Below the pieces are notes generated by a model. That model did no database searches. It was given only the letters and a program-made list of their open reading frames with translations, and had not been told where the DNA came from. Positions 3,100-63,329 of a stretch of 64,000 nucleotides of DNA are shown here, piece after piece. Origin of the DNA: Mobula hypostoma (taxonomy: Eukaryota); contig NC_086108.1 of NCBI RefSeq assembly GCF_963921235.1, positions 86,678,001 through 86,742,000 of the forward strand. Direction: 5' to 3'. Position 1 is the first letter of the stretch; the number at the start of each line of letters is the position of its first letter. The position numbers and the translations under genes are program-made.

Positions 3100-3997
3100 G
3101 AAGCAATGCACACAAAGTGCTGGAGGAACTCGTCAAGTCAGACAGCATCTATGGAAAAGAATAAACAGTCAATCTTTTGGGTTGAGACCTTTCATCAGGA
3201 CTGGAAAAAAAGATGAGAAGTTAGAGCAAGAAGTTGGGAGGGAGGGGAGGAAGAAGTACGAGGTTGTAGGTGAGAAGTGAAACTGCAAGAGGGGGAAGGA
3301 ATGAAGTAAAGAACTGAGAAGTTGACAGGTGAAAGAAATAAAAGGGCTGGAGAAGGGGGAATCTGTTAGACCTGAGAAATTGCTTTGCCAAGCATCTGTG
3401 CTTCACCCACCAGAAAAAGCAGATGTCCCGGTGGCCATCCATTTCAATGCTATTTCCCATTCTCATTCTGACTTGATAGTCCATGCCCTCCTCTACTGCT
3501 GCAATGATGTCACACTCAGGTTGGAGGAGCAACAGCTAATATTCTGTCTGATAGCCTCCAACCTGATGGCATTAACATTGATATCTCAAACTTCTGGTAA
3601 TGCTCCCCATCTCCTTCACCATTTCCCACTTTCACCTTATCTTCTTATCTGCCTATCACCTCCCACTGGTGCTCCTCCCCCTTTTCTTTCTTCCATGACC
3701 TTCTGTCCTCTCCTATCAGATTCCTCCTTCTCCAGCCCTGTACCTCTTTCACCAATCAACTTCCCAGCTCTTTACTTCACCCCTCCCCCTTCCAGTAAGA
3801 CCTATCACTTTTGGTTCTTTCTCCCCTACCCCACCTTCTTCCTCCGGCTCCTCTTTTTTTTTTCCAGTCCTGGTAAGGACCTCGGCACAAAACGTCAACT
3901 GTACTCTTTTCCATAGATGCTGCCTGACCTGCTGAGTTCCTCCAGCATTCTGTGTGTGTTGCTTGGATTTCCAGCATCTGCAGATTTTCCTTTGTTT
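3100..3997. mobile_element. Penelope-like element 3' part (+) with an inverted terminal copy (-) at its 5' side
   Basis: 3103-3370 is the reverse complement of the terminus at ~3720-3962. The + part encodes the Penelope C-terminus PVAIHFNAISHSHSDL...RLEEQQLIFCL. Confidence 0.8.
3166..3203 (-). ncRNA. Degenerate minimal type I hammerhead ribozyme motif (Penelope terminus)
   Basis: Minus strand CAGTC-CTGATGA-AAGGTCTCAACCC-AAAA-GATT-GACTG; stem I and CUGAUGA box intact, GAAA box and cleavage triplet mutated. Confidence 0.6.
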
Positions 3998-5909
3998 GTT
4001 TGTATTGAGCACTCCCTTTGGATAAGGTTCTCCAAGGTTGGCATTTCTGTGCCTCCTGTTTGAGATTTATAACCTTCTCTCAATTGTCTGCAATTCCTTT
4101 TAGAGCCTCCAGTAATGGAGTTCTGCCAATAGCATTGCCACAGAGACATCCACTGAATGAGCAGTTCAATAAGTAAATGCCGCCCATGTTGGTTTCAGAA
4201 GGTTTGCTGGACTCTGGGAGTATTTCAGTAACTTGCAGTCAGTTCTGAATTCGCCCCTTGAAGGGTCCCAATATTAGCAACCTGCTCTTTAACTAAAGAT
4301 GAGAGCAAGAACGCGATGCACTCTGCTCACGAGATCTCTTGAGATGATTACACAACAGCTGTTGACTGGAGGTTTGGTTTATTTCAAAAAGGTTTCAGCT
4401 GGAGTAGAATGACGATTGACATCTTTAGTGCAGATCTGATTCTGGGCAAGCCTTTTGCCTGCTGATCTGAATCATGACTAGAACTACCTGACCTTATTTC
4501 TAAACATTTATATGTAATGTAGACAATGTTGCCTCTAATTATTTTTTCATGCTGCACAGACCAACTATTGCTCTGAACTGGAAATTTTTACATGGCCTGA
4601 AAACTGCAATGCACTTTAACAAAATACTATATAAAAGAAAATTCCAGCTGTGTGGGAACATTGTGCGCGGGAGCATTTCAGTTACTGTGTGGCTGTGCAT
4701 CCATGCAGCTTAAAGGGAGCAGCGAATCGAGATGCCTTTTAAAAGGAGGAATCATAATTACAGTAAAGATATCCTTTGTTTTTTTTTTAAATCACTACCT
4801 TGTTTCCCATACCACATATCAAAGGGAAGCTATTGACTCTCCCACCCTGGATCATTTCCATTTTCTATATTACAGCTGCAGCACATCTTGGTGTTTAACA
4901 ATTATTTCCTCCAGAGAATACATAGGGCCCAGGAAGATACCTTTGCTCCTTTCCACACCATCATCATGCAAGAGTTCTCATTAAGAGCTTTCACAGCACT
5001 GTGGATGATTATCCTGGCATTTTTTTATCTGCTGCATGCGAACCTATTGGTCCTGCAGTCAGTCTATCCATCTCAAAAACATCAAGGCCAGTTGTAATGT
5101 TATCATAGCTGAGATAAGCTAAGTAGATAATGGCATGAACTTGTTTGATCTGTGTGGATGAGTTCTGCACTGTACAATTCACTTACCCCTTGGGCAGCAA
5201 CAGAATACTGTTCAGAAACAAATTGCACTCACCGCAATCGATGGATTCCTTTTCGTTTTGGACCATTACGAATTTATGCGGAGGACTGCCAACCATGTGT
5301 TTGCAACTTTATCAGTTACCCAGAGAAGAACTTAGGGAGTCGTGGCGGATTTTGTTGAAGGGACTGTCAAAAGTGGATGCAGTCAAACTGTTCACTTTGG
5401 TGAGGGATCGCAAATGATGCAACAGTGGTCTAAAAATTGGCTAATATTAAAATGAAGTCAGGCACATTGTTGTCTTGCATGGCACCCACTAGATACAACA
5501 CCCAAGAATGTCCGTATTAAGGCACTCTTAGAAGTGCATGGGCAGGATGTGCCTCAGAACATATCTTCTCAGGATCCTTCACAGGTAATGAAGCAATCCA
5601 ACTTTTAGATACCTTTCTGTGGCAGAGTACTGAGCCTACAGCAGCCACACTAAGCACAACCTTCACCTTCACACTCTGACAAATAACTTGCTCCAACTCT
5701 TATTTTGTATTTACAGTCAAGCTTAGCATCCCACTGGGTAAGCTGGTTATGATGCAGCTCATCTGAATATTACAATTAGGAAACAAATTTATTGTCTCTT
5801 CCCCCTCTTTTTTAATGTTAGTGCTACTTCATGTTGGAATCTGCTCTTTATACAGTCTCCAAGGCGAAATTGACTTTGAGTTAAGTCTCCAGTATTGACA
5901 GTTTCACAT

Positions 5910-6900
5910 TCTTAAGATCATGTCTTCCTAACCAGGGCCTCAATATCTCTTAAAAACCAAGATTCCCTAAAACCTGTTATCCTTGCTTTTTATTCTGACA
6001 AAAACATACAAACTCTGTACTCTCAAAACTTCACTTTTGAAGGCCTCCCATTTACCTAATACACATTCGCCCGAAAAAAAAACTGTCCCAATCCACATTT
6101 GCCAAATCCTTTCTGATATTATCAAAATTGGCCTTTCTCCAATTTAGAAATAAACCCAAGGACCAGACCTACCCTTCTCCATAATTATCTTGAAACTAAG
6201 GGTATTATGATTACTAGATAACTTATGTTCCCTACACAAAGTTCTGTCACATGCTCTGTCTTATTCCATAATAGCAGGTCTATGACTGCACACCCTCCTG
6301 TTAGAAACTTTATGTATTGATTAAGGAAATTTTCCTGAACACATTTGACTAACTCTATCCCATCCAGCTCTTTTACAGTTTTGGAGTCCCAATCAATATG
6401 TGGAAAATTGTAATCACCTATTATCACAACCTTGTGTTTCTTGCAATAGTCTGCAATCTCTCTACTAATTTGTTCTCTAAATCCTGCTATCTATTGAGTG
6501 GATTATAATATAATCCTGTTAACATGGCAATCCCCTTCTTATTCCTCGTTAAATGGCCTCAGTAGACAAGATCTCCAAATGGCCGCAGTAGACAAGATCT
6601 TCAGTTTGTCCTGTCTGAGCACTGCTCTGACATTTTCCCTGACTAGAAATGCTACTGCTCCCCCTTTAATCCCTCCTGCAGAACCCCAGAATATTGAACT
6701 GCCAATTCTTCCCTTCCTGCAGCCGTCTCACTAATGGCTGCAATGGCATAATTCTGCATGCTGATCCATGCCCTATGCTTATCTGCCTTTCCTATAATAT
6801 TCCTTGCATTGAAATATACACAAGTCAGGACATTAGTCCCACCATGCTTAATCTTCCAATTCTTGACTTTATGTTGACTTAAAGACATCTTTCCCCACAG
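5910..6900 (-). mobile_element. CR1 LINE fragment (ORF2 AP-endonuclease region)
   Basis: CVYFNARNIIGKADKHRAWISMQNYAIAAISET and IIGDYNFPHIDWD...VKCVQENFLNQY. Confidence 0.85.
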
Positions 6901-6904: not shown

Positions 6905-7175
6905 TCACAGTAAATTACCCCAACAGACTCACAGGTTAAATGTTGCCTCACCTGGAAGGGCTGTTTAGGGCCCAGAATGGTCGTGAGGGAGGAGGTGTAG
7001 AGGCACTTATTCCGCTTGCAAAGATAAGTGCCAGGAGTGAGATCAGTGGGGAGGGACAAATAGACAAGGGAGTGACATAGGGAGTGATCCCTGCAGAAAG
7101 TGGGGGGTGAGGGAAAGATGTGGTGGGATCCCATTGGAGGTGGTGGAAGTTTTGAAGAATTATCTGCTGGATATG
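6905..7175 (-). mobile_element. Penelope-like fragment (linker and start of GIY-YIG)
   Basis: GTYLCKRNKC...ILGPKQPFQVRQHLTCESVGVIYC; homologous to 13600-13865 and 54110-54390. Confidence 0.8.
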
Positions 7176-9660
7176 GAGTTGGGTCATAACAGGCTCCAAC
7201 ACCTATGGTGTAAACTTGTTTCTCACCAACAAACTAGGGCAGAGTCGGGACTGCTAGTGGTGGGGCTAACAGGCTGTATTCACAAGCTTTAACTTGGGAA
7301 CGTGGAAAGTGAGATTGGTCTTCAGGGTCTGAAGGAGCTGCAAGGTGTCGGCCACCAGGTTTGCTTTCCTGAAAGTCCTGAAGGGTCCAATAAACTTTGG
7401 TGCCAATTTCCAGGACTCCACTTGGAAAGGTAAATCCTGAGTCGACAGCCAAACCTGTTGCCCAGGCTACAAAACTGGTCCCTGTCTTCTCTTGTGGTTA
7501 GCCTTTACTTCAGCCTTCCAAGAAGAAGCTAACAAAATCCCCCTTGCCCTAGTCCATCTCTCCCTGTAGCATTGGACAAGATCTTCAGCTGCAGGAACTC
7601 CAGCCTCTGATTCCTGCTCAGGGAAAAGTGGTGGAGAATACCCAAACTGGCATTTGAAAGGAGAAATCCTGTGTGCTGAATGCCAAAAAGGTGTTGTGGG
7701 TGCCCTCTGCCCACATCACATAGTTGTTCCACTTGTTCAGTCTTTCAGAGACCATGCATCTGAGGGTACATTCTATATCTTGGTTTACCCACCCTCTCTG
7801 GCCATTAGACTGCAAGTGAAACCCAGAGGAAAGACTCGCTGTTGCCCCAGTCAGTTTGCAAAATACCCTCCAGAAATATGATGTGAATTGCAGACCATGA
7901 TCCAACACAATACCCATCGGAAAACCGTGAATCCTGAAGACCTGCTACAGGACAATCTTAGCCATCTCTGCCACACATGGAAGTCTGTCCAAGGCGATGA
8001 ATTTGTAGGCCTTCAAAAAACAATCCACAATTACAATGATAAGGGTCTTCCCTTTGGAAGAAGGAAGACCTGTGACAAAGTCCATGGAGATGTGTGCCGG
8101 TGGTCTGTCTGGAACAGTCAGAGGGTGAAGCAGTCCTTGAGGCCGGGTGTATGGCTCTTTGTTCAGGGCACACAATTTGCATGCCAGTACATATTAAAGG
8201 TCCTCCCTCATCATTCCAGGCCACCAATATCTTCTTTTGATGAACTTGAGGGTCCTAGCAATCCCTGGGTGAGATATCAATCTTGATGCATGTCACCAGT
8301 GAAGAACCTGAAACTAGATGGGTCTAGGAACGAACAGCTGACCCAGAAGGCCATTCTGAGGAATCTCTCCTTGCACCTGGGCCTTGCAAACAAGCGTGTC
8401 GATTCCCTGATAAATTGGTGCAATCACCTTGACTAGAGGCAAAATGGTGGCTTTTCTCATTTGAGTTCGTCGAACTGATGGGACAAGGCATCTGGATTTT
8501 GGCTCTTAGATACTGGTCGAAAGGATGGAATGAGATTAAAAAGGTTAAAGAAACGAGACCATCTGGCCTTCCTGGCATTCAGTCTCTTGGCCTCCTGAAT
8601 ATAAGCCATGTTCTTGTGGACTGTCCATACAATAAAAGGGTTCTTGGCCCCCTTAAGCCAGTGACGCTATTCTCCAGAGCCAACTTTACCACGAGCAGCT
8701 CTCTATTCCCAATGTTGTAATTCACTTCTGCGGGGGATAGTCACTTGGAAAAGAGTGCACATGGATGTAGTTTATTGTCCAAAGGTGTCTGTGGATACAA
8801 CACTGCATCCACTCCAACGTCCAAAGTGTGCACTTCCACGATGAAGAGAAGGTCCAAGTTGGGTGCAAACAACATGGGAGGTGCTGTGAACCATTGTTTG
8901 AGCTCTGAGACAGCAGCCTCCACCTTGGTAATGCAGACAAAAGAACCTGTAGATCTTTTGGTTAGTGCTGTCAGCAGAGCCACTACTGCGCTGAGGTTCC
9001 TGATAAACTTTCAATAAAAATTTGCAAATCTCAGGTTTCGTTAGACCTGTTTCATACTGGATGGTGGTGGCCAATTTCCGACTGCCTGTGTCTTACTCAG
9101 GTCCATCTTAAAATTGCCATTAGAGATGATGATGAAGCCCAAAAAATAAATAGTGGTTATGTAAAATTCAAACTTCTCCAGCTTGACAGAAAGTCCATGA
9201 TCAAGAAGCCTTTCCCAGATATTTGGAGAGGTGGATAGCCAAATTAATCCCAGGGCAAAAGCCACCTTAATATAATCCTCCATAGCGCTTCTCTGCGGGC
9301 CTGAGAATACATATAATCAACCCCGCGGAGGACGTGTACCTGACACTGGATCTATTGCACAGTCGTAGGTTGGTGGAATGGAAGAGTCGAGGCCTTTCCG
9401 GTACTGAATACCTCTTCCAATTCCTTGTAGATGGAAGGAATTTCTACCAGCTGGGTGCTATATGGACCCCTAAACCTGCATCCGAAGATGACTACTGAGA
9501 CTCTGTTGGTGGTGGGGTGCTTTGGCACACCTAAGAGTCTCCCCATAGGTCTACAAGATTCTTTAGTGAAAACAGAAGGCAAATCACAGTCCAAATCCTC
9601 GTCCATCTCTTTAGATATCAAGAGACTTTGATGAAAAGAGACTGAAGCCAAAGACACAGG
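7176..9660 (-). mobile_element. Decayed Sushi/Tf1-type Gypsy pol (RT, RNase H, integrase), left half of a split element
   Basis: VFSTGKASTLP; KLEKFEFY; FIVEVHTLDVGVDAVL...KLHPCALFS; HISMDFVTGLPSSKG; ASLSSGFHLQSNGQ. On minus, a purine-rich stretch then TGTTATGACCCA marks the start of a truncated 3' LTR near 7187. Confidence 0.85.
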
Positions 9661-13589: not shown

Positions 13590-14370
13590 GAGAGTCCTTG
13601 ACAACTTCCAACATTTCCAATGGGATCCCACACCAAGCACATCTTTCCCTCTCTCCCACTTTCTGCTTTCTGCAGGGTTTGCTCCCTACACGACTTCCTT
13701 GTCCATTCATCCCTCCACACTGATCTCTCTCCTGGCACTTATCCTTGCAAGCAGAACAAGTGCTACACCTGCCCCCCCCTCCCTCACTACCATCCAGGGC
13801 CCTAAACAATCCTTCCAGCTGAGGTGACACTTCACCTGTGAGTCTGTTGGGGTCATATGCTGTACCTGGTGTTCCTGGTGTGGCTTCCTGTATAGCGGTG
13901 AGATCTGGCATAGATTGGGAGATCGCTTCACCACTATATTCCATCTGATAGCCTCCAACCTGAAGGCATGGACATCAATTTCTCAAACTTCCAGTAATGC
14001 CCACCCATCCCTTCACCATTCCCCATTCCCATTTCTCACTCTCACCTTATCTCCTTACCTGATCATCATCTCCCTCTGGTGCTCCTCCCCCTTTTCTTTC
14101 TTCCATGGTTAACTGTCCTTTCCTATCAGATCCCCCTTCTCCAGCCCTGTATCTCTTTCGCCAATCTACTTCCTAGCTCTCAACTTCAACCCTCACCCCT
14201 CACAGTTTTACCTATCACCTTGTGTTTTTTTCCTCTCCCCCCCACCCCCCAACCTTCTTTTTCTGACTCCTCATCTTTTTTCTCCGGTCCTGAAACGTTG
14301 GCTATAACTCTTTCCATAGATGCTGTCTGGGCTGCTGAGTTCCTCCAGCATTTTGTGCATGTTGCTTGGA
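13590..14370 (+). mobile_element. Penelope-like element 3' part (GIY-YIG relic + terminus)
   Basis: FTCESVGVICCTWCSWCGFLYSGEIWHRLGDRF (GIY-YIG VIYC..C..C.LLYIGET pattern); terminus gatgctgtctgggctgctgagttcctccagcattttgtg. Confidence 0.85.
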
Positions 14371-14935
14371 TAGAGAAGCATTGATGTTTAATGAGGAAAG
14401 AGTCCTGGTTTTAGAAAGAGTTGCTAATTTGGGACATGCAAGAAGTCAGAAGTAGGAAGAGCAGTTATCACTGAATACGTCGCAGTGGATGATCTTGCAG
14501 AGGTTGGGAGGACAGAACTAAGTATGAGCATTATAAAACTGAGGCAAGGCTCAGAGGGCAGGCAACCTCAGTACTTGTACTTGTTGCTGGTTAATGTATA
14601 GGAGGCAAACTTTTCAGAATCAGAATCAGATTAATTATCACCAGCATGTGTCGTAAAATGTGTTAATTTTCAGAGTTAGGCTTGTGGGAGATGAAGACTT
14701 ACCAGAAAAGTCAAAGCAAAGATATGTATAAAGATTTCATCAGCGGTTGGGCTGAAGAAGGACAGATTGAGGGTTATAGAGGTGGAAGTTAATAATGGAG
14801 AAGGTATGTGGTCAGCAGCTCATCCAGGGCACAAGCCTTTATAATCCAAGACTAATTGCACTTTTAAAGGACTACTTTGGCTATATAGTGTTTTCAGGAC
14901 TCATGGAATTGCAAAATAAACTATATGAAAAGAAG

Positions 14936-15151
14936 CAGAAGAGATTCTGCAAATGCTGAAAATGTTGAGCAACACAGACAAAATGCTGGAAGAACTCAGC
15001 AAGTCAGGCAACATCTATGCAGGTGAATAAATAGACAACATTCCAGGTCAAGTCCCTAATGAAGTCCTGAAGAAGAGTCTCAGCCCAAAACATTGACTAT
15101 TCCCCTCCACAGATGCTGTCTAACATGTTGATTTCCTCCAGCATTCTGTGC
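14936..15151. mobile_element. Fold-back element of two inverted Penelope termini with 15-bp imperfect TSD
   Basis: Arms are reverse complements. Flanks ctatatgaaaagaag (14921-14935) and ctatgtgaaaaggag (15152-15166). Confidence 0.75.
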
Positions 15152-15499
15152 CTATGTGAAAAGGAGTCTTTATTTCTTATATTTTCAGTAATGTTGTGAA
15201 GACTGCTTAAACACACTTACCTAAGGCAGTATATTGAGTAGGACAGCATAAAAACAAAAAGAGCCATTGTGTAATGATCTAAAAATGGTAATGCTGAATT
15301 GGCCGCCCACTTTATGTCCAATAAAATCAATCAACCATTTTACACTATCACAAAAATTCAAAATGGCCACAAATTATTGTGTTGGTAATAAAGTGTTATG
15401 TTTGTCAGTAATTTAGGATTTGTGGTGTATGAAACAGATCCATTTTAATCGCCCTGCCTACTCTAGAGCAGTTTCCACTTACAAAGAGATGTGATTCTG

Positions 15500-16234: not shown

Positions 16235-16540
16235 TTACCTGCCTATCATCACTCCTGGTGCTTCTACTCCTTCCCCTTCCCCCATCTGTTGCATTCTTCC
16301 TCTATAACATTCCTTCTTCTTCAGCTATTTACCTTTTCCTCCTATCTCCTCCTGGCTTCTTACATTTCTGTGCCCCCCCCCCCGCTGCACCCCCAACTGG
16401 CTTCCACTTATCACCTTCTATTTTGTACCCCTTCCCTTTCTCCCACCTTCTTACTCTGACCTTTTTCCCCCTTCCTTTCCAGTCCTGATGAAGGATCTCG
16501 GCCCAAAACATTGACTCTTTATTCATTTCCATAGATGCTC
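16235..16540 (+). mobile_element. Penelope terminus fragment
   Basis: Pyrimidine-rich UTR then cagtcctgatgaaggatctcggcccaaaacattgactc...catagatgct. Confidence 0.75.
16480..16516 (+). ncRNA. Near-consensus minimal hammerhead ribozyme motif
   Basis: CAGTC-CTGATGA-AGGATCTCGGCCC-AAAA-CATT-GACT; most differences from the reconstructed consensus are CpG-type transitions. Confidence 0.6.
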
Positions 16541-16554: not shown

Positions 16555-17260
16555 TTTCAAAGTTCAAAGTACATTTATTATGTAAGTATGCATACTACAT
16601 ACAAACTTGAGATTAATTTCTTTGCAGGCATCCACAAAAAGACAGTTGAACCCATTAACAAAGAACATCAAAGACCCAATGTGCAAAAAGAGAACAAATT
16701 GTGCAAACAATAAAAAATAAGCAAATAATATTCAGAACTAAAGTTCACAGCAATGAAACCCGCCAACTGACCTGTACCTACCTCCAGCCCCAACACCCTG
16801 ACCTTTGAAATCTGGCCCAACATGTCCAGGAACTTGAAGCAGCTCACCCTTTCCATTGCTGATCCTTTCATGAGTTGTCTCCTGACTTCACCTTCTGGAA
16901 CTCCATGATTAATTCCTTGGAATTAATGATGTTGAGTGCAAGTTTGTTGTTGTAACATCACTCAGCAAGCCAACCTATCTTTCTCATGTATGCCTCCTTG
17001 TCACCAACTGAGATTCTGCCAGCAACATTTCTGTCATTGGTGAATTTATCAATGCCATTTGAACTCTGTCTAGTCGCACAGTCATGAGTGTAGAGAGAGT
17101 AGAGCAGTGGGCTAAGCATACATCCTTGAGGTGCACCTGTGGTTGTGAATGAGGAGAAGGTGTTATTTCTGATCCACACTGACAGTAGTCTCCGGATGAA
17201 GAATTTTAGGATACAGTTGCAGAGTGAGGAATAGAGGCAGGAAAGGTTCTGGACAATCCC
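16555..17260 (-). mobile_element. Rex1/Babar-type LINE fragment (RT + 3' tail)
   Basis: TTGAPQGCMLSPLLYSLYTHDC...KFTND; ERVSCFKFL; repeated TTTGAAC-type tail shared with 61615-61760 and 63330-63530. Confidence 0.75.
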
Positions 17261-17820
17261 TGAGGAGTTCAGCCAATCAGGAAGCATCTATGGAGGGAAA
17301 TGGACAGATGACATTTTGGATTGTAACCAATCAATAGGACTGAAAGGCAGAGGGGAGATAGCCAGCATAATAAAAGTTGAGGGGAAGGGTTGGCTGGCAA
17401 ATAATAGGTGGATTGGGGTGAGGGGGAGTGTTTGACAGATGGAGGAGGGAAGAGTGGAAAATGCAGCGAAGGCTGGGAGGTAATAGGTGGATGCAACAAA
17501 GAGCTGAAGATGATGCAATCTAATATGAAAGAAAGGTGGAGCATGAAATCAGAGCGAAGAGTGTGATGGGCAGATGGGAGCAGTAACGGTCAGAGACCCA
17601 ATGGAGGGAGTGTGCGAGTGATTAGTAGATGAAATATATGCAGAAGAGAAAGAAACAGAGTGACGGAGGCTTGGGCAGGTGTAAGAGGAACTGGGTGGAT
17701 AATGAGAAGGGTTGGGGTAGTGGGGGTGGTAGGGGTACAGTTTACCTGAATTAAAGAATTTAGTGTCCGTGCCATTGAGTTACAGACTAGCCAGGCAGAA
17801 TATGAACTGTTGACCCACAG
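17261..17820 (-). mobile_element. Old Penelope terminus fragment
   Basis: gaggagttcagccaatcaggaagcatctatggagggaaatggacagatgacatttt... followed by the purine-rich UTR. Confidence 0.6.
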
Positions 17821-20920: not shown

Positions 20921-20930
20921 CTTCTCCCCC
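20921..20930 (-). promoter_or_regulatory. Polypurine tract of the Mag-type element
   Basis: Minus strand GGGGGAGAAG immediately before the 3' LTR. Confidence 0.8.
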
Positions 20931-40813: not shown

Positions 40814-40847
40814 CTGTGGTATTTATCAAATCAATCGATAAAAGCAA

Positions 40848-46385: not shown

Positions 46386-46630
46386 GCAAATACTAGAGAA
46401 ACTCAGCAGATCAGGGAGCTTCTTTGGAGGAATAAGCAGTTGATGTTCCAGCCTAGACACTTGGTAAGGAATGGAAATGTAGAGCGATGAAGCCAAAATA
46501 TCTCCCTCCCTTCCTCCTTTGCTGATGCTATTTATTCCCTCTCATAGATGGTGCCTAACCTGCTGATTTCCTGCAGCATTTTGAGTTTGTTGCTCAAGAC
46601 TTTCAGTATCTGCAGAATCACTTTTGGTTG
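46386..46630. mobile_element. Old fold-back pair of Penelope termini
   Basis: aaatactagagaaactcagcagatcagg... vs ...cctgctgatttcctgcagcattttg plus extension to ctgcagaatc. Confidence 0.55.
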
Positions 46631-46739
46631 TGTGTCCATGAAACAGGGCATTCTCTTCCACTACAACCCTCACTACCCAAATGACTTGGGTCTGAAGCGA
46701 TCCTGTGTATATTAGTATCTCTGTTAAAGGAACTGGAAG

Positions 46740-49700: not shown

Positions 49701-50298
49701 GGACTGAGTTTAGGAGCCGAGAGTTAATATTGCAGCTATATAGGACCCTGATCAGACCCCACTTGGAGTACTGTGCTCAGTTCTGGTCACCTCACTACAG
49801 GAAGGATGTGGGAAGTATAGAAAGGGAGCAGAGGAGATTTACAAGGATGTTGCCTGGATTGGGGAACATGCCTTATGAGAATAGTTAAGTGAACTTGGCC
49901 TCTTCTCCCTGGAGTGGTGAAGGATGAGAGGTTACCTGAAAGAGGTGTATAAGCTGATGAGAGGCATTGATTGTGTGGATAGTCAGAGGTTTTTTCCCAG
50001 GGCTGAAATGGCTGGCATGAGAGTACACACTTTTAAGGTGCTTGGAAGTAGGTACAGAGGCAATGTCAGGGGTAAGTTTTTTACGCAGGGAGTGGTGAGT
50101 GCGTGGAATGGGCTGCCGGCGGCGGTGGTGGAGGTGGAAATGATAGGGTCTTTTAAGAGACTCCTGGATAGGTACATGGAGCTTAGAAAAATAGAGGGCT
50201 ATGGGTAACGCTAGGTAATTTCTAAAGTAAGTACATGTTCGGCACAGCATTGTGGGCCGAAGGACCTGTATTGTGCTGTAGGTTTTCTATGTTTCTAC
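46740..50298 (+). mobile_element. CR1 LINE, nearly complete decayed ORF2 with 3' tail, interrupted by a solo LTR
   Basis: Endonuclease VVVGDFNFPNIDW...LDLVL...GDSDHN; RT VVYMDFSKAFDKVPH; tail ttttctatgtttcta. Confidence 0.92.
47592..48146 (+). mobile_element. Solo LTR (555 bp) with 4-bp TSD GGAG
   Basis: TGTTAG...CAACA termini; GGAG at 47588-47591 and 48147-48150; AATAAA near 48082; the CR1 is continuous once it is removed. Confidence 0.85.
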
Positions 50299-51482: not shown

Positions 51483-51824
51483 TAATGTAAGATTAGTGTA
51501 ATTGGGTGCCTGATTGTCATTGTGAACTTGGGCTGAAGAGGTTTGTTTCTGTGCTTTCCTTGGCTCAAAGTTGCTTGAACTGGTTATGATCAATACTCAG
51601 ATTCATTTGGTCTCCAATTCTTCCCTGCTAATGTTCTTTCACTCCCACCTTTATATATGCAAACAACAGCTTCAACGCATCATTTGGATTGTTATTGTGT
51701 TCCATCCTTATCTGTCAACAAACAGATTTTTGACTGGAAGCGCTTTCAAAGAAGGTGGCAGATGTGTACATGTTCACTATATGTTGTTGTTAGTCCTGCT
51801 CCTCTTTGAGATTACAGATGCTTT

Positions 51825-52000
51825 GAGACTACAGATGCTGGACCCTAGAGTAACAAACAACCTGCTGGAAGAACTCAGCAGGTTGAGCAACATCTGTAGG
51901 AAACTAAAACCCTGCTTCTGTTCCAGGACCTGAAGCACTGACAATTCCCTTTCCTTCTGCAGGGGCTGCATTGAGTTCTTCCAGCAGATTGTTTATTGCA
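51825..52000. mobile_element. Fold-back pair of Penelope termini (different subfamily)
   Basis: aacaaacaacctgctggaagaactcagc vs ttgagttcttccagcagattgtttattg. Confidence 0.55.
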
Positions 52001-52354
52001 TTGCTTTGAGTCCTCTAGATAAATCCACTTGGGCAAGACTGAACAGACAATTGCGTATGGTCATACCTCTTGAGATCCTTCCTGAGCTGCGAAGCAGGGG
52101 CCACTACCTTGCCTCCACCCATTTTCAATACAACCTCTCCATTAAAAACATTTAGGCACTCACAGGGTTCCCTTCAAAATCTGAAGAGGATACTTTATGG
52201 TAACTGGTGTTTGAACAGCTCTGATTGTAGCACCTTCAACCACAAGTTTTAAGAATTTATACAGATCATTAACCTTAATTTCCCAGTACCCACCCTGGGA
52301 CCCACCCTTTATTAAGTCTTGAAAGAGTAGTTTACAGTTAAGTGAACATTCTAT

Positions 52355-55037
52355 TGCATGTTGCCATCTACATCCACATACCTCAACTCCATTCTATCCT
52401 CCTTGGTTCAGTTCCTTCCCACTTACTTCCATGGCATTTCATATGCCCTCGATCTCCTCAACAACTTTTATTTCTCTGGCTCTGACAACCTCATTTTCAC
52501 CATGGATCTCCAGTGCCTATACACATCTATCTCCCATCAAGAAGGGCTTAAAGCTCTCTGCTTCTACCTCAGCAAAAGACCCAACTAGTTCTCCTCACCA
52601 CCACCCTCCTCCATCTGACAGAACTGGTCCTCACCCACAACAATGGCTCCACCCGCTTTTTTTCCAAACTCAAGTGGTAGCCATAGGCACTCACATGGGC
52701 CCCAGCTATGTCTGCCTTTTTGTTGGCTATGTTGAACTGTCCATATACCAAGCCTTCCCTGGTAGTGTTCCCCAACTCTTACGGCACTACATTGATGGGT
52801 GATTTGGTGCTGTTTCATTTACCCATGCTGGGCTCATCAGCTTCATCAACTTTGCTTTCAACTTGAACCCTTCCCTTAAATTCACTTGGTCCATTTAGAT
52901 TAGTTTCAACTTTATTGTCATTGTGCCGAGTACAGGTACAAAGCCAATGAAATGCGTTTAGCATCTGACCAGAAATGCAAATAGCGTTATTTACAAAATA
53001 ACTGCAAATAAAAAAAAGTGCTACAGCACACAAATATAAAAGTACTGAGACAGTAGAATACAGATGCAATACTGCTTAGCGCTGTGATGAGAGGTTCAGC
53101 AGTGTCACAGCCTCAGGGAAGAAGCTCTTCCTGTGCCTGCTGGTGCGGAAGCGGAGGCTCCTGTAGTGCCTACCAGATGGAAGGAGAGTTAAAAAGTCCA
53201 TGGTTAGGGTGAGATGCATCCCTGATAATGCTTTTCGCCCTGCCCAGGCAGCGTTTATGGTAGATGTTCTCAATGGTGGGCAATTGGGTGCTGATAATCT
53301 GCTGGGCAGTATTCACCACATGCTGGAGTGCTTTGTGGTCCGATACGGGACAATTGCCATACCACACTGAGATGCAGTTGGTGAGGATACTCTCAATGGT
53401 ACAGCGGTAAAAGTCCGACAGTATCCTGGGACAGAGGTGAGCTTTCTTGATGCTCCACAGGAAATAAAGGTGCTTTTGCACCTTTCTGATCAGGATGGAA
53501 GAGTTCAGGGACCAGGTGAGATCCTCGGAAGTGTGGACACCGAGGAGTTTGAAGCTTGATACACGCTCCACTACAGCTCCGTTGATGTAGATGGGGACGT
53601 GAGTGTGACTCCTGGCATGCCTCAAGTCCACTATGATCTCCTTGGTCTTCTGGGTGTTAAGGGCCAGATTGTTGTCGGCACACCATGCAGCCAGGTGCTG
53701 GACCTCATCCCTGTAGGCTGTCTCGTCTTCTGATGACCCTCCCCTTTCTCAATTTCTCTGTCTCCATCTCTGGAGACAAACTGTCTACCAACATCTTCTA
53801 TCAACTCCCAATTCCCACGGCTATCTTGACTACTCCTCTTCCCACCCTGTCTCCTGTAAAAATGCTACCCTCTTTTCACAGTTCTTTCATCTCTGCTGTA
53901 ACCGTTCCCAGAAAAAGCCTTTCTTTTTCAGGAGATCAGAAATGTCGTCCTTTGAAGAACAAGTTTTCCCTTCCTTCAGCATTGATGCTGCTCTGACACA
54001 TCTCCTCCATTTCGCAGACATCCACACTCACCTCATCTTCCTGCTGCCTTAATGGGGATTGGATTCCTCTTGTCCTCCCCTACCACCCCATGAACTTCCA
54101 AATACAACGCATCATTCTCCACAACTTTTGGCATCTTCCACAGGATCCTACTACCAAACACATCTTTACCTCCCCCTGACACTCCACTTTCTGCAGGGAC
54201 TTCTCCCTCTATGATTCCCTTGTCCATTCTTCCCTTCCTACTAATCTCCCTCCTACCACATATTCCTGCAAGTGCAAGAAATGTAATACCTGCCCATTCA
54301 CCTCCTCCCTCACCTCCATTCAGGGCCCTGTACAGTCCTTCTACGTGAGGCAAAGCTTCACTTGCGAAGCTTTTGGGGTTGTCTGTGGTATCCAATGCTG
54401 CAGATACGACCTCCTCTACATTGATGAGGCACAACATAAATTGAGGGACTGCTTTCTCAAGTACCTCTGCTCCATCAGCTAGAAGCAGAACCATTGGCCA
54501 GTCATTTTAATTCCTGTCCCCATCCCCATTCCAACATGTTGATCCATGGCCTCTTCTGCCACAATCAGGCCACTTTCAGGGTGTAGGAGCAACACCTCAT
54601 ATTCCATCTAGGTAGCATCTAACCTGATGGCACGAACATTGATTTTTTCCTTCTGTTTTTTTTTCTTTTTCCACTTCCCCTTCCTGCTTCTTCTGTTCCC
54701 CACTCTAGCCTTTTATCTCTTCTCCTGATCTGCCCTTTCATCATCCCCTGGCGCCCCTCCTTCTTCCCTTTCTCCTATGGTCCACTCTTCTCTCCTATTA
54801 GATTCCTTCTTCCGTAGTCCTTTACCTTTCCCACCCACCTGGCTTCACTTATCACCTTCTACCTTATCCTCCTTCCCTTCTCCCCACCTTTCTATTCTGG
54901 CAACTTCTTTTTTGCTTTCCAGTTTGATGAAGGGTCTTAGTCCAAAACGTCGACTATTTCTTCATTTCCATAGATGCTGCCTGACCAGCTCAGTTTCTCC
55001 AGCATATTTTGTGTGTTACCCTGGATTTCTAGCATCT
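52355..55037 (+). mobile_element. Penelope-like retroelement (RT + GIY-YIG + terminus), decayed, split by a Rex insertion
   Basis: IFTMDLQCLYTSISHQEGL; VAIGTHMGPSYVCLFVGYVE; RHYIDG (YIDD); CKCKKCNTC...FTCEAFGVVCGIQCCRYDLLYIDE; terminus with hammerhead relic at 54920-54955. Confidence 0.9.
52897..53727 (-). mobile_element. Rex1/Babar-type LINE 3' fragment inserted in the Penelope RT
   Basis: VERVSSFKLLGVHTSEDLTWS...FYRCTIESILTNCISVWYGNC...DASHPNHGLF; the Penelope sequence rejoins at ggtccattt|ttctga. Confidence 0.9.
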
Positions 55038-55388
55038 GCAGAATCTCTTGTGTTTATGTTGCCATAGTTCTAGTTTTCAAATGAGGTAGATATTCAGAGA
55101 ACAATATCCTTCCCAGTCAACGTAAGTTATAGCAGTGGTGAAGAGAAAACATATATCCATGTGAGTGCAATCTCTAGATCTTTGGACTTTGGGGAAATCG
55201 TTCACTTGGCAAAATTGAAATACTCTATCAAACTGCCGTTAGTTGTCAATGAGAATGTAAATTAAATAGCTTACTCTGGCAAGGAATGCACATATGAACA
55301 ATATAATGCATTTATACAGAGCTGATTTACTAAAGTTACTGTTATTCTTAGAAGCAAGATTAAATAATTTGGTAGAATAAATGGTCAG

Positions 55389-58337: not shown

Positions 58338-59731
58338 TGCTGTGGAAGACGTCCTGCCTCGTCCCTGTGCCGAAGACGCCGCGCCCCAGTGGCCTCAATG
58401 ACTACAGACCGGTGGCATTGACCTCCCACATCATGAAGACCCTGGAGAGACTTGTTCTGGAGCTGCTCCGGCCTATGGTTAGGCCACACTTAGATCCCCT
58501 CCAGTTCGCCTACCAGCCCCGACTAGGAGTTGAAGATGCCATCGTCTACCTGCTGAACCGTGTCTACGCCCACCTGGACAAGCCAGCGAGCACTGTGAGG
58601 GTCATGTTTTTTGACTTCTCCAGTGCATTCGACACCATCCGTCCTGCTCTGCTGGGGGAGAAGCTGACAGCGATGCAGGTGGATGCTTTCCTGGTGTCAT
58701 GGATTATTGATTACCTGACTGGCAGACCACAGTACGTGTGCTTGCAACACTGTGTGTCCGACAGAGTGATCAGCAGACTGAGGCTCCACAGGAGACTGTC
58801 TTGTCTCCCTTCCTCTTCACCATTTGCACTTCGGACTTCAACTACTGCACAGAGTCTTGTCATCTTCAGAAGTTTTCTGATGACCCTGCCATAGTTGGAT
58901 GCATCAGCAGGGGAGATGAGGCTGAGTACAGGGCTACGGTAGGAAACTTTGTCACATGGTGTGAGCAGGATTATCTGCAGCTTAATGTGAAAAAGACTAA
59001 GGAGCTGGTGGTAGACCTGAGGAGAGCTAAGGTACCGGTGACCCCTGTTTCCATCCAGGGGGTTAGTGTGGACATGGTGGAGGATTACAAATACCTGGGG
59101 ATACGAATTGACAATAAACTGGACTGGTCAAAGAACACTGAGGCTGTCTACAAGAAGGGTCAGAGCCGTCTCTATTTCCTGAGGAGACTCAGGTCCTTTA
59201 ACATCTGCCGGACGATGCTGAGGATGTTCTACAAGTCTGTGGTGGCCAGTGCTATCATGTTTGCTGTTGTGTGCTGGGGCAGCAGGTTGAGGGTAGCAGA
59301 CACCAACAGAATCAACAAACTCATTCGTAAGGCCAATGATGTTGTGGGGATGGAACTGGACTCTCTGACGGTGGTGTCTGAAAAGAGGATGCTGTTCAAG
59401 TTGAATGCCATGTTGGACAATGTCTCCCATCCACTGCATAATGTATTGGGTGGGCACAGGAGTACGTTCAGCCAGAGACTCATCCCACCGAGATGCAACA
59501 CAGAGCGTCATAGGAAGTCATTCCTGCCTGTGGCCATCAAACTTTACAACTCCTCCCTTGGAGGGTCAGACACCCTGAGCCAATAGGCTGGTCCTGGACT
59601 TATTTCCTGGCATAATTTACATATTACTATTTAATTATTTATGGTTTTATTACTATTTAATTATTTATGGTGCAACTGTAACGGAAACCAATTTCCCCCC
59701 GGGATCAATAAAGTATGACTATGACTATGAT
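58338..59731 (+). mobile_element. Young Rex1/Babar-type LINE, 5'-truncated, with (TATGAC)n tail
   Basis: WKTSCLVPVPK...NDYRPVALTSHIMKTLERL...LDPLQFAY...VMFFDFSSAFDTI; LQKFSDD; one frameshift near 58775; AATAAA then tatgactatgactatga. Confidence 0.95.
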
Positions 59732-59766
59732 TATATGGGATTAATAGCAATGGCTATCTGTCATCT

Positions 59767-59967
59767 CAAACACGAAGAAATCTGCAGTTGCTGGAAATCC
59801 AAAACAACACACACAAAATAATGGAGATACTCAGCAGGCCAGGCAGCATCTATAGGAAAGGGTAAACAAGGTCCTGGTGAAGTGTCTCAGCCCAAAACGT
59901 TGACTGTTTACTCTTTTCCATAGATGCTTGGCTTGCTGAGTTCCTCCAGCATTTTGTATGTGTTGCC
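59767..59967. mobile_element. Fold-back element of two inverted Penelope termini with perfect 11-bp TSD
   Basis: ATCTGTCATCT at 59756-59766 and 59968-59978; arms reverse-complementary; hammerhead relic at 59870-59906. Confidence 0.85.
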
Positions 59968-60072
59968 ATCTGTCATCTGACTCATTCGTTTATGGACTTG
60001 AATAGAAATATAGCTTTTGCCAGTAGAGAAATGGAAATGCACTAGATATTTGGAAAGAGTTCTACATTTAGG

Positions 60073-60968
60073 TCCATAAGACCATAAGACATTGGAGCAA
60101 AATTAGGCCATTCAACCCATCGAATCTGCTCCGCCATTGTCTCATGGCTGATTTATTATCCCTCTCAAACCCATTCTCCTGCCTTCTCCCCATAACGTTT
60201 GACACCCTTACTAATCAAGAACCTATCAAGCTCCACTCAATGACTTGACCTCCACAGCCACCTGTGGAAATGAATTCCACAGATTAATCACGTTCTGGCC
60301 AAAGAAATTCCTCCCCATCGCTGGTCTAAAGGGATGTCCTTGTATTCTGAGGCTGTGCCCTTTGGTCCTAGACTACCCCACTGTAGGAAACATCCTCTCC
60401 ACATTCATTCTGTCTAGGCCTTTAAATATTAATTAAGTTTCAATTATATTCCCCCATCATTCTTCAAACCTCCATTACTACAGGCCCAGAGCCATCAAAT
60501 GCTCCTCATACATTAACCCTATCATTCCAGGAACATTCTCTCTCATGAACCTCCTCTGGACCCTCTCCAATGCCAGCATTAGGGGTGGCACAGCAGTGCA
60601 GTGGTTAGCGCAAAGGTTTACAGTACCAGCAACCCAGGTTTAATTCCTGCCACTGCCTGTGGAGCTTGTATGTTCTCCCCGTGACTATGCGGGTGTCCTT
60701 CCACAGTCCAAGACACAACAGTTGATAGGTTAATTGGTCATAAATGTAAATCGCCCCATGATTTAGGCTAGGATAAAATCGGGCGGTTGCTGGGTGGCGC
60801 ACCTGGAAGGACCAGAAGGGCCTATTCCATGCTATATCTTATAAATAAATAAATAAACATCCTTCCTTAGATAAGGGGCCCCAAAATGCTCACAATAGTC
60901 GGTGTGGTCTGATCAATGTATTATAAAGACTCAGCATTACATCCTTCTTTTTATACTCTAGCCCTCTC
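60073..60968 (-). mobile_element. CR1 3' fragment interrupted by a SINE
   Basis: 3' end ccataagaccataagacattggagcaaaattaggcc; CR1 resumes after 60858. Confidence 0.8.
60581..60857 (+). mobile_element. HE1/V-SINE-type SINE with (AAAT)n tail
   Basis: ggggtggcacagcagtgcagtggttagcgc...tgtatgttctccccgtgac...ataaataaataaataaa. Confidence 0.8.
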
Positions 60969-61848
60969 ACGGGTTTTTAGGGCAGAAGTCAATGCGCAAT
61001 GCCACGTTCCTGACTGGGCCAGAGTGAGTTCAAATGGTGTGGGAGGTAAATGATCATAAACTCTCTAACAACCACTGCAGTGAGTGGCTCAAATGGCTTT
61101 AACTCTCACTTCAACCAGTCCCTGCCGGTCAGCTGACCCGCAGCAAGAAAGTAGGAGGAAGCTGTACCTTCCTGGCAAGCATAAGGGAAATTTAAGCAAC
61201 AAGAGGGTGCAGGAGGACATTGACAGAATGAATTACATTGGTTACAAGCAGGAATGGGCGACAGGAGGACCATCATTTGCCTGTTCAAAAAAGAGCCATT
61301 TTCAGTGGTTGGATGATCAGTGCATCTTGCTCAGTTTAAAGTAGATACTAGTGGGAACTCAGCAGGTAATCCAACAGTCCCTGTAATCTATCTAAATGGT
61401 CAGTCTCTGTCAAAGCATAATGTTTAGATCACCATCACCCATCAAACCTAAGAATAGGTGAGAGACACTAAGCTTGTGTGATAATCTGATGAAGTAATTG
61501 TTTGCAATAATAATGCCAAGAATTATGAACACGTTGATTCCAAAATATAATCAGTTGCAGGCAAAGGGCCACTGCTGCCTTTTGGACGGCGAGGCAACTT
61601 AAAAGGAATGTTCCAATGTTCAAAGGTTCAAAGGTACAATTTAGTGCCAGAAAAATGCATACAATATACATCCTGAAATGCTTTTTCATTGCAACCATTC
61701 ATGAAAACAGAGGAGTGCCCAAAGAATGAGCGACAGTTAAACTTTAGAACCCCAAAGTTACCGTACAAAGCGAGTATAGTTTCCTAAAGTGGGGGGAAAA
61801 AACGTAAGACTACAGATGTTGGGATCTGTGGCATTGACATCACCTGCA

Positions 61849-62069
61849 ATACACACAAAATGCTGGAGCAACTAGGCAGGCTAGGAAACATCTATGGAAA
61901 AGAGTAAACTGTCAACATTTCAGGCCAAGACCCTTCATCAGTCTTGGGCCTCAGCCTGAAACGTTGACTGTTCGGTTTTTACCATAGATTCTGCCTGGCC
62001 TGCTGAGTTCATTCAGCATTTTGTTTGTGTTGCTTGGATTTCCAGCAACGACAGATTTTCTCCCGTTTG
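61849..62069. mobile_element. Fold-back element of two inverted Penelope termini with 14-bp TSD, nested in an older Penelope terminus (~61805-62310)
   Basis: tgacatcacctgca (61835-61848) and tgacatcatctgca (62070-62083); arms reverse-complementary. Confidence 0.85.
61909..61943 (-). ncRNA. Minimal hammerhead motif with both core boxes intact
   Basis: Minus strand GA-CTGATGA-AGGGTCTTGGCCT-GAAA-TGTT-GACAG; the 5' strand of stem I is lost at the fold-back junction. Confidence 0.55.
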
Positions 62070-63329
62070 TGACATCATCTGCAGCTCTTTTTGCCTCTCT
62101 TGCTATTTCCACTCTTCCATCTTCCTATCACTCCTCTTCACTCGAATCATCCAATCACATATCTGCTCTTCTTCCACCCCTTTCCTTTCACCTCTTTGTA
62201 CTGGCTTTTAGTCCAAATGAAGGGTTTTGACCCTCAGTGTCAACCGCCCATTTCCCTCCGCCAAATGTTCCCTGATGCATTGGAACTGCAGAGTTCCTCC
62301 AGCAGTTTATCCCTCAGTCTAGTTTCTTGAATTAATTGTTGTAAAAATGGAATACATTGTTCATTTTTATACTTGGTCGTTTGTTCTCTATGATATCTGT
62401 AAAGCCTCATGCACATGCGTAATCACGAAGAATTTCGTTTCACTGATTTTGTTCTGTTCAGTTGAATCCTTCCATTAACACATCATTACCTCATAAAATT
62501 ACAAGATACACCTGAAACAGAGCTTTAACCAAAAAAGACAAAGATTTTTTTTCATGAGTGATGCGATGACTGGAAAATAAATTTACCGTCGATGCCAATT
62601 CTTGTATTCTTATTGTTATCACTGCAATTTTCAGCATTAACATTCTCATTCTTATCATTTTATCATTGTTCAAACTTGTATTCTGATATGATTATGTCCA
62701 TTATTTTCCCACCTAGTCTTACTGCTATTTCTGGCAATGCTATCAGTCATCCTCAACGTTGCTGAACTATTGTTTCCCCTGACAAAATTACTTCTTTAAC
62801 CTGGAGAATAATTGGCAAAAATGTAATAAAATGATACTGCAAGGTATTTGGAAGCGACGATGTATGAAATCTACACTATACATTGAAAAGATTATTTTCA
62901 CCTTGGCTGAGAGTATTGCATTGAGTTCCATTACCAGGTCAGTTTCAAAGAAGTTCAAATCCCAATTAAACTATTTCAATTTGCTGCAATATGACAATGA
63001 ACATCATTTTCATCACAGTCAATCACATTAGATTGAAATTTACTGACTATCAATTTGGTCCCTGTTTACTTTGAATGTGCTGCTTTCCATCACAGATAGC
63101 ATTCACTGCTTAATGAAACTGCTGTGTGAATAGATTCTTCAAGGTGGCCAATTAAACCTTAATCACATTTGATCAGGTCTCCTTGCCAACCTTCAGAAAT
63201 ATTGCTGCAATGACATAAGGAACAGTGATAAATCCTTCCCACCAGCACATTACATGTGGCCTTCTTCCTTGTGTGATTTTGGGCCGGTTTCTAAAGATTG
63301 GTTTTATTTGTACAATACATTTGTGCTAC

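Follow-up and report, generated by a model that had tools for sequence, protein, structure and literature searches.

Seventeen terminal fragments of one Penelope-like element were found by profile search in the window, that is, the whole 64-kb stretch of DNA analysed here. These copies are very probably the dead 3' ends of a highly abundant Penelope-like retroelement with a zinc linker of the Neptune/Nematis type, and the motifs recurring in them are almost certainly its hammerhead signature. The terminal repeat carries a minimal type I hammerhead some 270 nt beyond the endonuclease stop, and an end of 70 or 105 nt comes after it. Insertions are 5'-truncated and often consist of two back-to-back arms, one with a long and one with a short end, together with a target-site duplication. 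The features of the window are as follows.

3094..3369 (-): inverted arm of pair A; 3' UTR, motif and a short tail that stops 69 nt beyond the predicted cut
3166..3203 (-): hammerhead remnant with 10/11 core positions (G12>A), H17=U, 5/5 pairs in stem I and 3/4 in stem II
3395..3598 (+): remains of the C terminus of the GIY-YIG endonuclease, frameshifted (P0004 matches by tblastn at E 2e-12)
3598..4003 (+): sense arm of pair A; pyrimidine-rich 3' UTR, motif and a long tail reaching 110 nt beyond the cut
3865..3901 (+): hammerhead remnant with 8/11 core positions (A6>G, loss of G8, G12>A)
6907..7184 (-): internal Penelope ORF fragment, from the linker to where GIY-YIG begins; no accompanying terminus found
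13594..14371 (+): 5'-truncated copy; linker, GIY-YIG remnant, 3' UTR, motif and short tail
~14285-14304 (+): motif of the 13594-14371 copy, from which 18 nt are deleted internally
14921..15163: pair B; long-tailed arm 14933-15057 (-), short-tailed arm 15063-15150 (+)
14921 and 15152: flanks of pair B, 12-bp direct repeat with 1 mismatch
15062..15099 (+): hammerhead remnant with 10/11 core positions (G12>A), H17=U
16235..16539 (+): solo arm, ending 27 nt past the predicted cut
16480-16517 (+): motif of the 16235-16539 solo arm; 10/11 core (G12>A)
17255..17580 (-): older solo arm, absent from the sequence-only reading; motif at ~17305-17342, 8/11 core
46388..46635: pair C; short-tailed arm 46388-46477 (-) with decayed motif
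46528-46635 (+): long-tailed arm of pair C, which begins near motif position 36
51819..52010: pair D, more diverged; arms 51829-51910 (-) and ~51928-52008 (+)
51819 and 52002: flanks of pair D, 9-bp direct repeat
52355..54646 (+): longest Penelope ORF remnant; RT, CxxxxCxxC linker and GIY-YIG, with stops and frameshifts
~52897-53735: fragment of another retroelement, interrupting the 52355-54646 remnant
54676..55059 (+): 3' UTR, motif and long tail belonging to the 52355-54646 remnant
54920-54956 (+): motif; G12>A, one base lost at the border of stem I and core
59753..59978: pair E; long-tailed arm 59767-59868 (-) from about motif position 37, short-tailed arm 59871-59966 (+)
59753 and 59965: flanks of pair E, 14-bp direct repeat with 1 mismatch
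59869..59906 (+): hammerhead remnant with 9/11 core positions (A6>G, G12>A)
61835..62083: pair F; short-tailed arm 61846-61941 (-), long-tailed arm 61946-62071 (+)
61835 and 62070: flanks of pair F, 14-bp direct repeat with 1 mismatch
61909..61941 (-): sole copy with an 11/11 core; H17=U, GUU at the cut, stem I without its 5' strand (1/5 pairs), which the inversion junction has removed
61946..61970 (+): half motif, stem II through stem I 3' strand, no CUGAUGA box
62082..62308 (+): old solo arm (nhmmer E 1.3e-5); motif 62209-62246, 6/11 core

Recurrence, architecture and host element of the motif

A sequence-only reading had named nine stretches with related motifs in the window. All nine were found, with coordinates right to within a few bases, and seven of the named motifs have a full-length frame, including the heavily decayed one at 62210 and the one at 61909 without the 5' strand of stem I. 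At 61946-61970 motif sequence is indeed present, but only as half a motif lacking the CUGAUGA box, and the related copy at ~62210-62250 keeps the core at only 6/11 positions. The list was incomplete: decayed copies at ~14285, 15057 (-), 17342 (-), 46469 (-) and 51928 (+) had been overlooked. The family profile was seeded from eight of the named copies, which match it by construction, and gave 20 matches at E<1 and 17 at E<0.01 in the window, with 12.3 bits for the lowest retained match versus 7.2 bits for the best match in 20 shuffled windows. A family-independent hammerhead descriptor gave no perfect match in the window in its strict form, in agreement with the earlier statement that no copy is intact; the sole 11/11 core (61909-61941) lacks the 5' strand of stem I. 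With at most one core mismatch the descriptor gave three matches (3166-3203, 15062-15099, 16480-16517) versus a mean of 0.08 in 12 shuffles, and relaxed to two core mismatches it performed at chance level (6 in the window versus 3.6 in shuffles). An independent covariance model, trained only on ten motifs from other organisms' elements, returned six named copies as its top six matches (E 0.0003-0.11) and did not recover 3865, 61946-61970 and 62210. A search of the window with Rfam yielded no hammerhead, a result that carries no weight because Rfam also missed the intact motifs of related loci in 7/7 cases. An exact-pattern scan for the intact motif gave no matches in viral contigs, prokaryote genomes and metagenome contigs, and a protein-guided scan of viral contigs confirmed 0/50 candidates.

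The CpG-aware consensus computed from the window is the same 38-mer that had been proposed, CAGTC-CTGATGA-A-GGGT-CTCG-GCCC-GAAA-CGTC-GACTG, and the proposed minimal type I topology also held: an extra A follows the CUGAUGA box (between 9 and 10.1), stem II has 4 bp with G10.1-C11.1, and the palindromic ACGU (15.2-16.2) replaces stem III, without loop 3. The core elements CUGANGA, GAAA and UH are all present in this consensus, and the loose-end consensus of 1,256 contigs from public run X5 has identical letters at positions 11-40 (agreement 0.65). In the corresponding consensus from run X1 (2,675 contigs) the palindrome carries a CpG-decayed letter. The family is very abundant, with more than 200,000 contigs per DNA run (247,521 placed on it in run X1 and 216,406 in run X5). 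The public data comprised four runs, all of contigs, two of them tentatively labelled as RNA. The G of GAAA is not the majority letter in the window, but it is deduced from CpG decay and supported by the outside contigs; the C11.1-G12 dinucleotide reads CA in seven of 14 rows, TG in six, CT in one and CG in none.

At 3865 and 54920 the motif lies on the sense strand, some 270 nt beyond the end of the endonuclease. Among 39 eligible related loci (80 fetched), 12 have a strict minimal hammerhead 99-304 nt past the ORF match and 27 have no strict motif; none of the 39 has one antisense or inside the ORF. Two of the related loci, L005 and L031, have a motif on each side of the full ORF, about 3.1 kb apart. 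The extra A occurs in 12/12 related motif matches and G10.1-C11.1 in 10/10 aligned ones. In these ten motifs, which were chosen for their core while position and strand played no part in the choice, the core (C3, U4, G5, A6, G8, A9, G12, A13, A14, U16.1) is invariant and the stems are entirely different. Two-sided changes were found at 7/8 stem pairs, a partly circular count as the descriptor demands pairing. The copies in the window share one source and only decay.

The assignment to Penelope-like elements was borne out by ORF remnants that lead into the motif-bearing end at three loci. Those at 52355-54646 can be aligned, in the same order, with full-length RT+GIY-YIG proteins (E 1e-35 to 1e-29). 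Both RVT_1 and GIY-YIG are present in full-length relatives, scoring 29.4 bits (cutoff 29.6) and 25 (cutoff 22.6), respectively, in P0017. As Pfam assigned no family to the 196-aa window ORF at 3326-3913, the Penelope call rests on these relatives. The RT-EN linker CxxxxCxxC (CX2-5CxxC) is found in the window remnants near 13750 and 54270 as well as in P0004, P0005, P0012, P0017, P0018 and P0020, and this linker motif suggests that the element belongs to the Neptune/Nematis clade. No full-length copy flanked by direct pLTRs was found within the 64-kb window; this arrangement was observed only in the relatives L005 and L031. Three proteins were set aside: P0001, the top match of a 58-aa search, is an unrelated repeat protein, and P0002 and P0003 appear chimeric.

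Decay of the copies and junctions of inverted pairs

The loss of intact motifs had been ascribed mostly to CpG decay. CpG columns do change 2.4-3.4 times faster, but CpG-type changes make up only 38-46% of substitutions (38/101 in 11 rows; 23/50 in the seven best named copies). These rates exclude the 6/17 rows spanning fewer than 34 motif positions, and two imperfect rows inflate the non-CpG count slightly (54923, shifted one base in stem I, and 61946 (-), with junction sequence at positions 1-5). In the seven best named copies, 6/10 core lesions are of the CpG type, every one of them G12>A. CpG mutation removes G12 in most inserted copies, and the CpG at C11.1-G12 lets ordinary methylation-driven mutation turn off the ribozyme after insertion. 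The 38 nt contain four CpGs, with fast decay at G12 and C17. Selection on the core after insertion was not detected (non-CpG changes 17/109 in the core versus 97/563 in the tail, p=0.78). In the seven best copies, which were chosen for hammerhead likeness, the core has fared slightly better than the tail (3/69 versus 45/353 changes, p=0.06). Activity of any copy in the window is extremely improbable.

The sequence-only reading did not see that many of its copies are the two arms of one inverted insertion. Twelve of the 17 fragments are arranged as six back-to-back inverted pairs (A-F), and because of this arrangement no cis dimer can form within an insertion here. Each pair (6/6) has one long end (90-110 nt past the cut) and one short end (56-72 nt). 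With pair ends placed by eye, direct repeats flank 4/6 pairs with scores of 9-11 (among 2,000 random pairs, 13 reach 9 and 3 reach 11); no target-site duplication was found at pairs A and C.

In 9/17 arms the 5' end lies within the 38-nt motif, and no arm above shuffle noise begins further downstream than the motif. Four arm 5' ends fall at positions 35-38, just beyond the predicted cut between 33 and 34, each of them uncertain by several bases or more. In the long-tailed arms, short junctions lie within the motif and not in the next 60 nt in 5/5 cases (p about 0.009, post hoc). The right arm of pair D may reach position 14, and that of pair C may be an internal deletion. The clustering of inversion junctions within the ribozyme could be a record of ribozyme action in the germ line, with cleaved RNA as the template of one arm, which is judged improbable. 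If true, it would be genomic evidence of in vivo cleavage, which the anole study (Frangieh et al. 2024, PMC11167929) did not find. Stem I together with the GTCGAC and ACGT palindromes offers microhomology at the junction site, so that annealing of opposite cDNAs explains the cluster without cleavage. Pausing of the RT at the hairpin would be another source that needs no cleavage. Genome-wide counts of 5' junctions in this abundant family could test whether such ribozymes cut in vivo.

Folding, proposed mechanism and alternative readings

In nearest-neighbour folding, which omits magnesium and tertiary contacts, the double hammerhead reaches -19.9 kcal/mol, two closed monomers 2 x -12.7 and the inactive duplex -33.7, and the fold of the monomer has a z of only -1.7 against shuffles. 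The model thus predicts that inactive forms are favoured over the active dimer. For transcripts spanning pairs A, B, E and F, the predicted folding energies are far lower than those of the corresponding shuffles.

In the proposed mechanism, the intact element would be transcribed from tandem copies, as suggested by what has been published on other families. The monomer lacks a stem III, and its core is predicted to pair with its own cut site; according to the folding model it would therefore be silent. Two motifs, located either on separate RNAs or within one tandem transcript at a distance of about 3 kb, could pair via ACGU and, by analogy, would cut after GUC, probably slowly and helped by the protein of the element. 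The two end lengths may likewise correspond to two internal start points of reverse transcription, and the two arms to cDNAs primed from both strands of a break. More likely than not, the intact consensus would show measurable cleavage as a dimer or in the presence of protein. Minimal hammerheads of Penelope-like elements cleave weakly as dimers according to the parts of PMC4209133 consulted, and the anole ribozyme is described in the sections of PMC11167929 used here as cleaving only with the protein of its element and as dispensable for insertion in vitro.

Alternatively, the motif may be a hammerhead by descent that serves mainly as an RNA structure or protein-binding signal beside the internal RT start, with negligible or dispensable cleavage. 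The preference for closed or inactive forms in folding fits this explanation, as do passages on other elements: catalytic mutations leave in vitro insertion of the anole element unaffected and its cut is not the end point of any RNA-seq read (PMC11167929), Naiad/Chlamys elements do well although they lack canonical hammerheads (PMC8557442), and 8/9 Xenopus dimers failed to cleave (bioRxiv 2026.07.22.740005). The catalytic core is, however, invariant in ten related motifs despite wholly different stems, and the explanation is considered unlikely, though a serious contender. Much less credit, and slightly less than the germ-line record, is given to the idea that the short inverted pairs are a separate non-autonomous MITE-like or retrozyme-like family copied whole. 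Four pairs of 180-230 bp do have target-site duplications and both junctions in the motif, and non-autonomous pLTR derivatives are described in parts of bioRxiv 10.64898/2026.07.22.740005; but junction positions differ in every pair (13/2, 38/35, 37/3, 6/14), the long arm lies on the left in B, D and E and on the right in A, C and F, and the window has no tandem same-strand units, the closest same-strand motifs being 1.4 kb apart.

That the hammerhead likeness is a chance pattern in a decayed repeat is hardly credible. The absence of perfect descriptor matches and of an Rfam match, and the loss of G12 from most copies, would agree with chance, but the Rfam result is uninformative, and chance is contradicted by the outside contig consensus, the equal position of the motif in related elements, the stem changes among relatives, and the covariance model built from relatives, which ranks six window copies first. 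An equally negligible probability is assigned to the idea that the host has retained one copy as a functional ribozyme or a regulatory RNA. The copy at 61909-61941 (-) has all 11 core positions, yet it lacks stem I and has GUU at the cut; moreover, pairs B, E and F fold into long hairpins in which the motif is buried, and the core is not conserved above the tail.

Relation to known hammerhead-bearing elements

Motif class, dimer model and the anatomy of inversions and tails are already published in the consulted parts of PMC4209133, PMC8557442 and PMC11167929. Minimal hammerheads at Penelope termini have been known since 2014 and are thus nothing new as a class; the value of the window lies in the material. 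The statement that Penelope-like elements carry minimal type I hammerheads proposed to cleave as dimers was confirmed from passages of Cervera and De la Pena (2014, PMC4209133), where they are located in pLTRs of metazoan elements including fish Xena, Poseidon and Neptune. These motifs share with the window family the type I form without helix III, the palindromic 15.2-16.2, the extra base at 9/10.1, G10.1-C11.1 and a stem I of 4-5 bp, and they occur mostly as single motifs on truncated copies or as opposite-strand pairs 100-700 bp apart. Stem II has the canonical 4 bp in the window family, whereas it has 7-8 bp in the Schistosoma families. Cartilaginous fish are not named in the main-text passages of that study, whose supplements may list one. 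A literature search, with most subscription papers and supplements outside its scope, returned no report of the hammerhead of this family in cartilaginous fish or of a junction pile-up at a hammerhead cut.

According to the sections of PMC11167929 used, PAc, a Poseidon element of the green anole, also has a hammerhead in its pLTR and two end classes about 35 nt apart (tail), and cutting and extension there involve both DNA strands, in keeping with the two-armed insertions of the window. PAc belongs to Penelope/Poseidon, whereas the CxxxxCxxC linker of the window family marks Neptune/Nematis, and the ORF of PAc begins at stem II, whereas the ATG within the core box of the window consensus meets a stop after 21 codons. 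Neptune-clade EN+ elements, as described in portions of Craig et al. (2021, PMC8557442), similarly have RT, a zinc-finger-like linker, GIY-YIG at the C terminus, a 5'-truncated copy in inverted orientation at the 5' end, and a tail of 30-40 bp that is present at one end only.

Vertebrate non-LTR retrozymes, in the parts of bioRxiv 10.64898/2026.07.22.740005 consulted, likewise consist of pLTR-derived units with type I hammerheads and are reported in the sole chondrichthyan sampled. A non-LTR retrozyme needs at least two complete head-to-tail units and was rejected for the window, where 1.4-38 kb separate the same-strand motifs, all of them incomplete. Retrozymes are arranged in head-to-tail tandem, whereas the units of the window are dispersed or back-to-back.

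Motif copies and their carrier

All nine hammerhead-like stretches claimed by the sequence-only reading were recovered in place and all belong to a single dispersed repeat. A profile built on eight of these stretches retrieves 17 fragments at E<0.01 and 20 at E<1 in the window, the weakest retained match scoring 12.3 bits vs. a top score of 7.2 bits in 20 shuffled windows. This Penelope family makes up ~9% of the window, which has a CpG ratio of 0.26. Two of the nine stretches are present but incomplete: 61946-61970 is only half a motif, and ~62210-62250 keeps 6 of the 11 core (catalytic) positions. Five additional relics were found near these positions:

~14285 (+), relic with an 18-nt deletion
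15057 (-), relic
17342 (-), relic
46469 (-), relic
51928 (+), relic

As had been proposed, no copy is fully intact: a descriptor built from hammerhead rules only yields no perfect hammerhead in the window. With one core mismatch it finds three matches (0.08 expected from 12 shuffles), and with two mismatches the count is at chance level. All core positions are retained in just one window copy, 61909-61941(-), and there stem I is lost.

The carrier was traced from a 58-residue protein remnant that lies upstream of the copy at 3865 and matches 11 proteins. One of these proteins (P0004) gives a weak GIY-YIG match, and through another (P0005), which has motifs of an RT, 52 longer relatives were reached, with RVT_1 in most and GIY-YIG in many. 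A reverse search with the relatives located the following:

52355-54646, Penelope ORF remnant
13594-13995, Penelope ORF remnant
3395-3598, Penelope ORF remnant
6907-7184 (-), Penelope ORF remnant

The remnants at 52355-54646, 13594-13995, and 3395-3598 each continue via a pyrimidine-rich 3' UTR into the motif, which upholds the claimed Penelope origin. By linker motif alone (CX2-5CxxC), the carrier resembles Neptune and Nematis, to which PMC8557442 assigns this pattern. A minus-strand retroelement fragment (52897-53735) splits the RT region of the longest remnant, and a Pfam ALKBH8_N match at 53173-53748 belongs to this fragment. In the terminal-repeat consensus (e.g. 3915-4003), a second ATG lies 22 nt past the predicted cut with its frame open to the tail end, and may be the element's start codon.

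Hammerhead identity, consensus and decay

Among 80 metagenome loci encoding relatives, 39 were eligible (ORF end plus at least 300 nt beyond). The strict minimal motif lies 99-304 nt beyond the ORF match in 12 of these and is absent from 27; in none of the 39 does it occur antisense or inside the ORF. At two relative loci (L005 and L031), a full ORF is flanked by the motif on both sides. Two-sided changes affect 7 of 8 stem pairs among 10 relative motifs, a partly circular count as the descriptor demanded pairing. A covariance model from these 10 motifs alone places six of the nine copies at the top of its 12 window matches (E 0.0003-0.11) and misses three. Rfam is uninformative here, as it matches neither the window nor 7 motif-bearing relative loci. 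The motif anatomy agrees with the min-HHR features listed in PMC4209133. The original interpretation is right in kind, and the motif class is already known.

When CpG decay is allowed for, the window alignment yields a consensus identical to the proposed 38-mer. The dinucleotide containing the G of the GAAA box reads CA in 7, TG in 6, CT in 1, and CG in none of 14 window rows, so that this G must be inferred. Four public runs, matched to 3080-4020 at 80% likeness, placed 247,521, 216,406, 15,229, and 9,154 contigs; being contigs, these data are uninformative on expression or RNA ends. Among the best-supported rows, a loose-end consensus from run X5 (1,256 contigs) has the proposed letters at motif positions 11-40 with an agreement of 0.65, a second X5 row (2,528 contigs) is concordant with them, and a row from run X1 (2,675 contigs) bears a CpG-decayed letter in the palindrome. 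These outside contigs lend support to the predicted G.

In the 11 rows covering the motif, 40 of 87 cells in CpG columns are changed (38 CpG-type) vs. 61 of 323 in other columns (p=1e-6). CpG decay is the fastest process but accounts for only 38% of changes, or 46% if just the seven best named copies are counted; the claim of mostly CpG decay was overstated. In these seven copies it is behind 6 of 10 core lesions, every one at G12, the G of the GAAA box, described as general base in PMC6155905. Non-CpG core positions mutate at the same frequency as the tail (17/109 vs. 97/563, p=0.78); counts for the seven best copies are 3/69 vs. 45/353 (p=0.06).

Insertion anatomy and junctions

Six back-to-back pairs of inverted arms account for 12 of the 17 fragments:

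3094-4003, pair A, no flanking direct repeat
14929-15152, pair B, flanking direct repeat
46388-46635, pair C, no flanking direct repeat
51829-52008, pair D, flanking direct repeat
59764-59966, pair E, flanking direct repeat
61846-62071, pair F, flanking direct repeat

With pair ends placed by eye, the direct repeats of B, D, E, and F measure 9-14 bp, which 0.15-0.65% of 2,000 random pairs reach; none was found flanking A and C. Each of the six pairs joins a long arm, reaching 90-110 nt beyond the predicted cut, to a short one reaching 56-72 nt (p ~0.016). This layout is shared with the elements of PMC8557442, in which an inverted truncated copy is present and one end bears a 30-40-bp tail. According to PMC11167929, the tail reflects two internal sites of RT initiation; the same study demonstrates cutting and extension of both DNA strands. 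Paired motifs lie on opposite strands, and a cis dimer is therefore impossible within a pair; the closest same-strand motifs in the window are 1.4 kb apart and both broken. Transcripts spanning A, B, E, and F have folding energies far under those of shuffles; for B, E, and F, the predicted structure is a long hairpin.

The 5' end falls within the motif in 9 of 17 arms, four of these ends lying at positions 35-38. Searching the window with a profile of the tail alone detected no arms above noise starting further downstream. For long-tailed arms, the junction cluster in the motif has a post hoc p ~0.009. The cluster could, with low probability, record cleaved templates; individual arm ends are uncertain, and microhomology is available at this spot from stem I and two palindromes. 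Literature searches listed no paper on such a cluster.

Older-tail-like sequence (61800-61845) lies immediately outside the target-site duplication of pair F; an older arm, connected with the copy at 62082-62308, may have been the insertion target of F. Another repeat, at 16558-16728 and 63329-63482, starts directly after a truncated arm at 16539, which it probably truncated.

Predicted cleavage and neighbouring repeats

Carrier, motif, insertion layout, and decay are established; self-cleavage by the intact source element is a prediction. In a folding model without magnesium or tertiary terms, the core GAUG of the monomer pairs with the cut-site CGUC (-12.7 vs. -10.5 kcal/mol for an open core), and the double hammerhead reaches -19.9 vs. 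-33.7 kcal/mol for an inactive duplex. These energies are consistent with the low dimer activity, the protein-assisted cleavage, and the cleavage by 1 of 9 dimers reported in PMC4209133, PMC11167929, and bioRxiv 2026.07.22.740005, respectively. That the intact motif would cleave measurably, either dimeric or assisted by protein, appears somewhat probable; that transposition requires such cleavage is on balance doubtful in view of PMC11167929.

Ty3/Gypsy-type LTR retroelement remnants occupy 20690-28378, with gag, protease, RT, RNase H, and integrase domains at 21144-25426 (+) and a second RT/RNase H at 26657-27415 (-). Two direct-repeat pairs (20944/25798 at 95%; 20690/28147 at 90%) suggest nested insertions. 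Numerous LINE-like fragments, 63-87% alike, lie on both strands of 30781-50297, including an endonuclease domain (46963-47616) and a weak RT match (31380-31766). A tRNA-like match at 60587-60658 (21.4 bits, under the Rfam cutoff) lies beside a ~500 bp dispersed repeat, possibly a tRNA-derived SINE, with related copies near 32777, 37542, 42572, and 44964. Finally, the 3' fragment of a retroelement is present as a young inverted duplication at 804-1129 and 59402-59728 (95% identical), the latter copy stopping ~35 nt from pair E.
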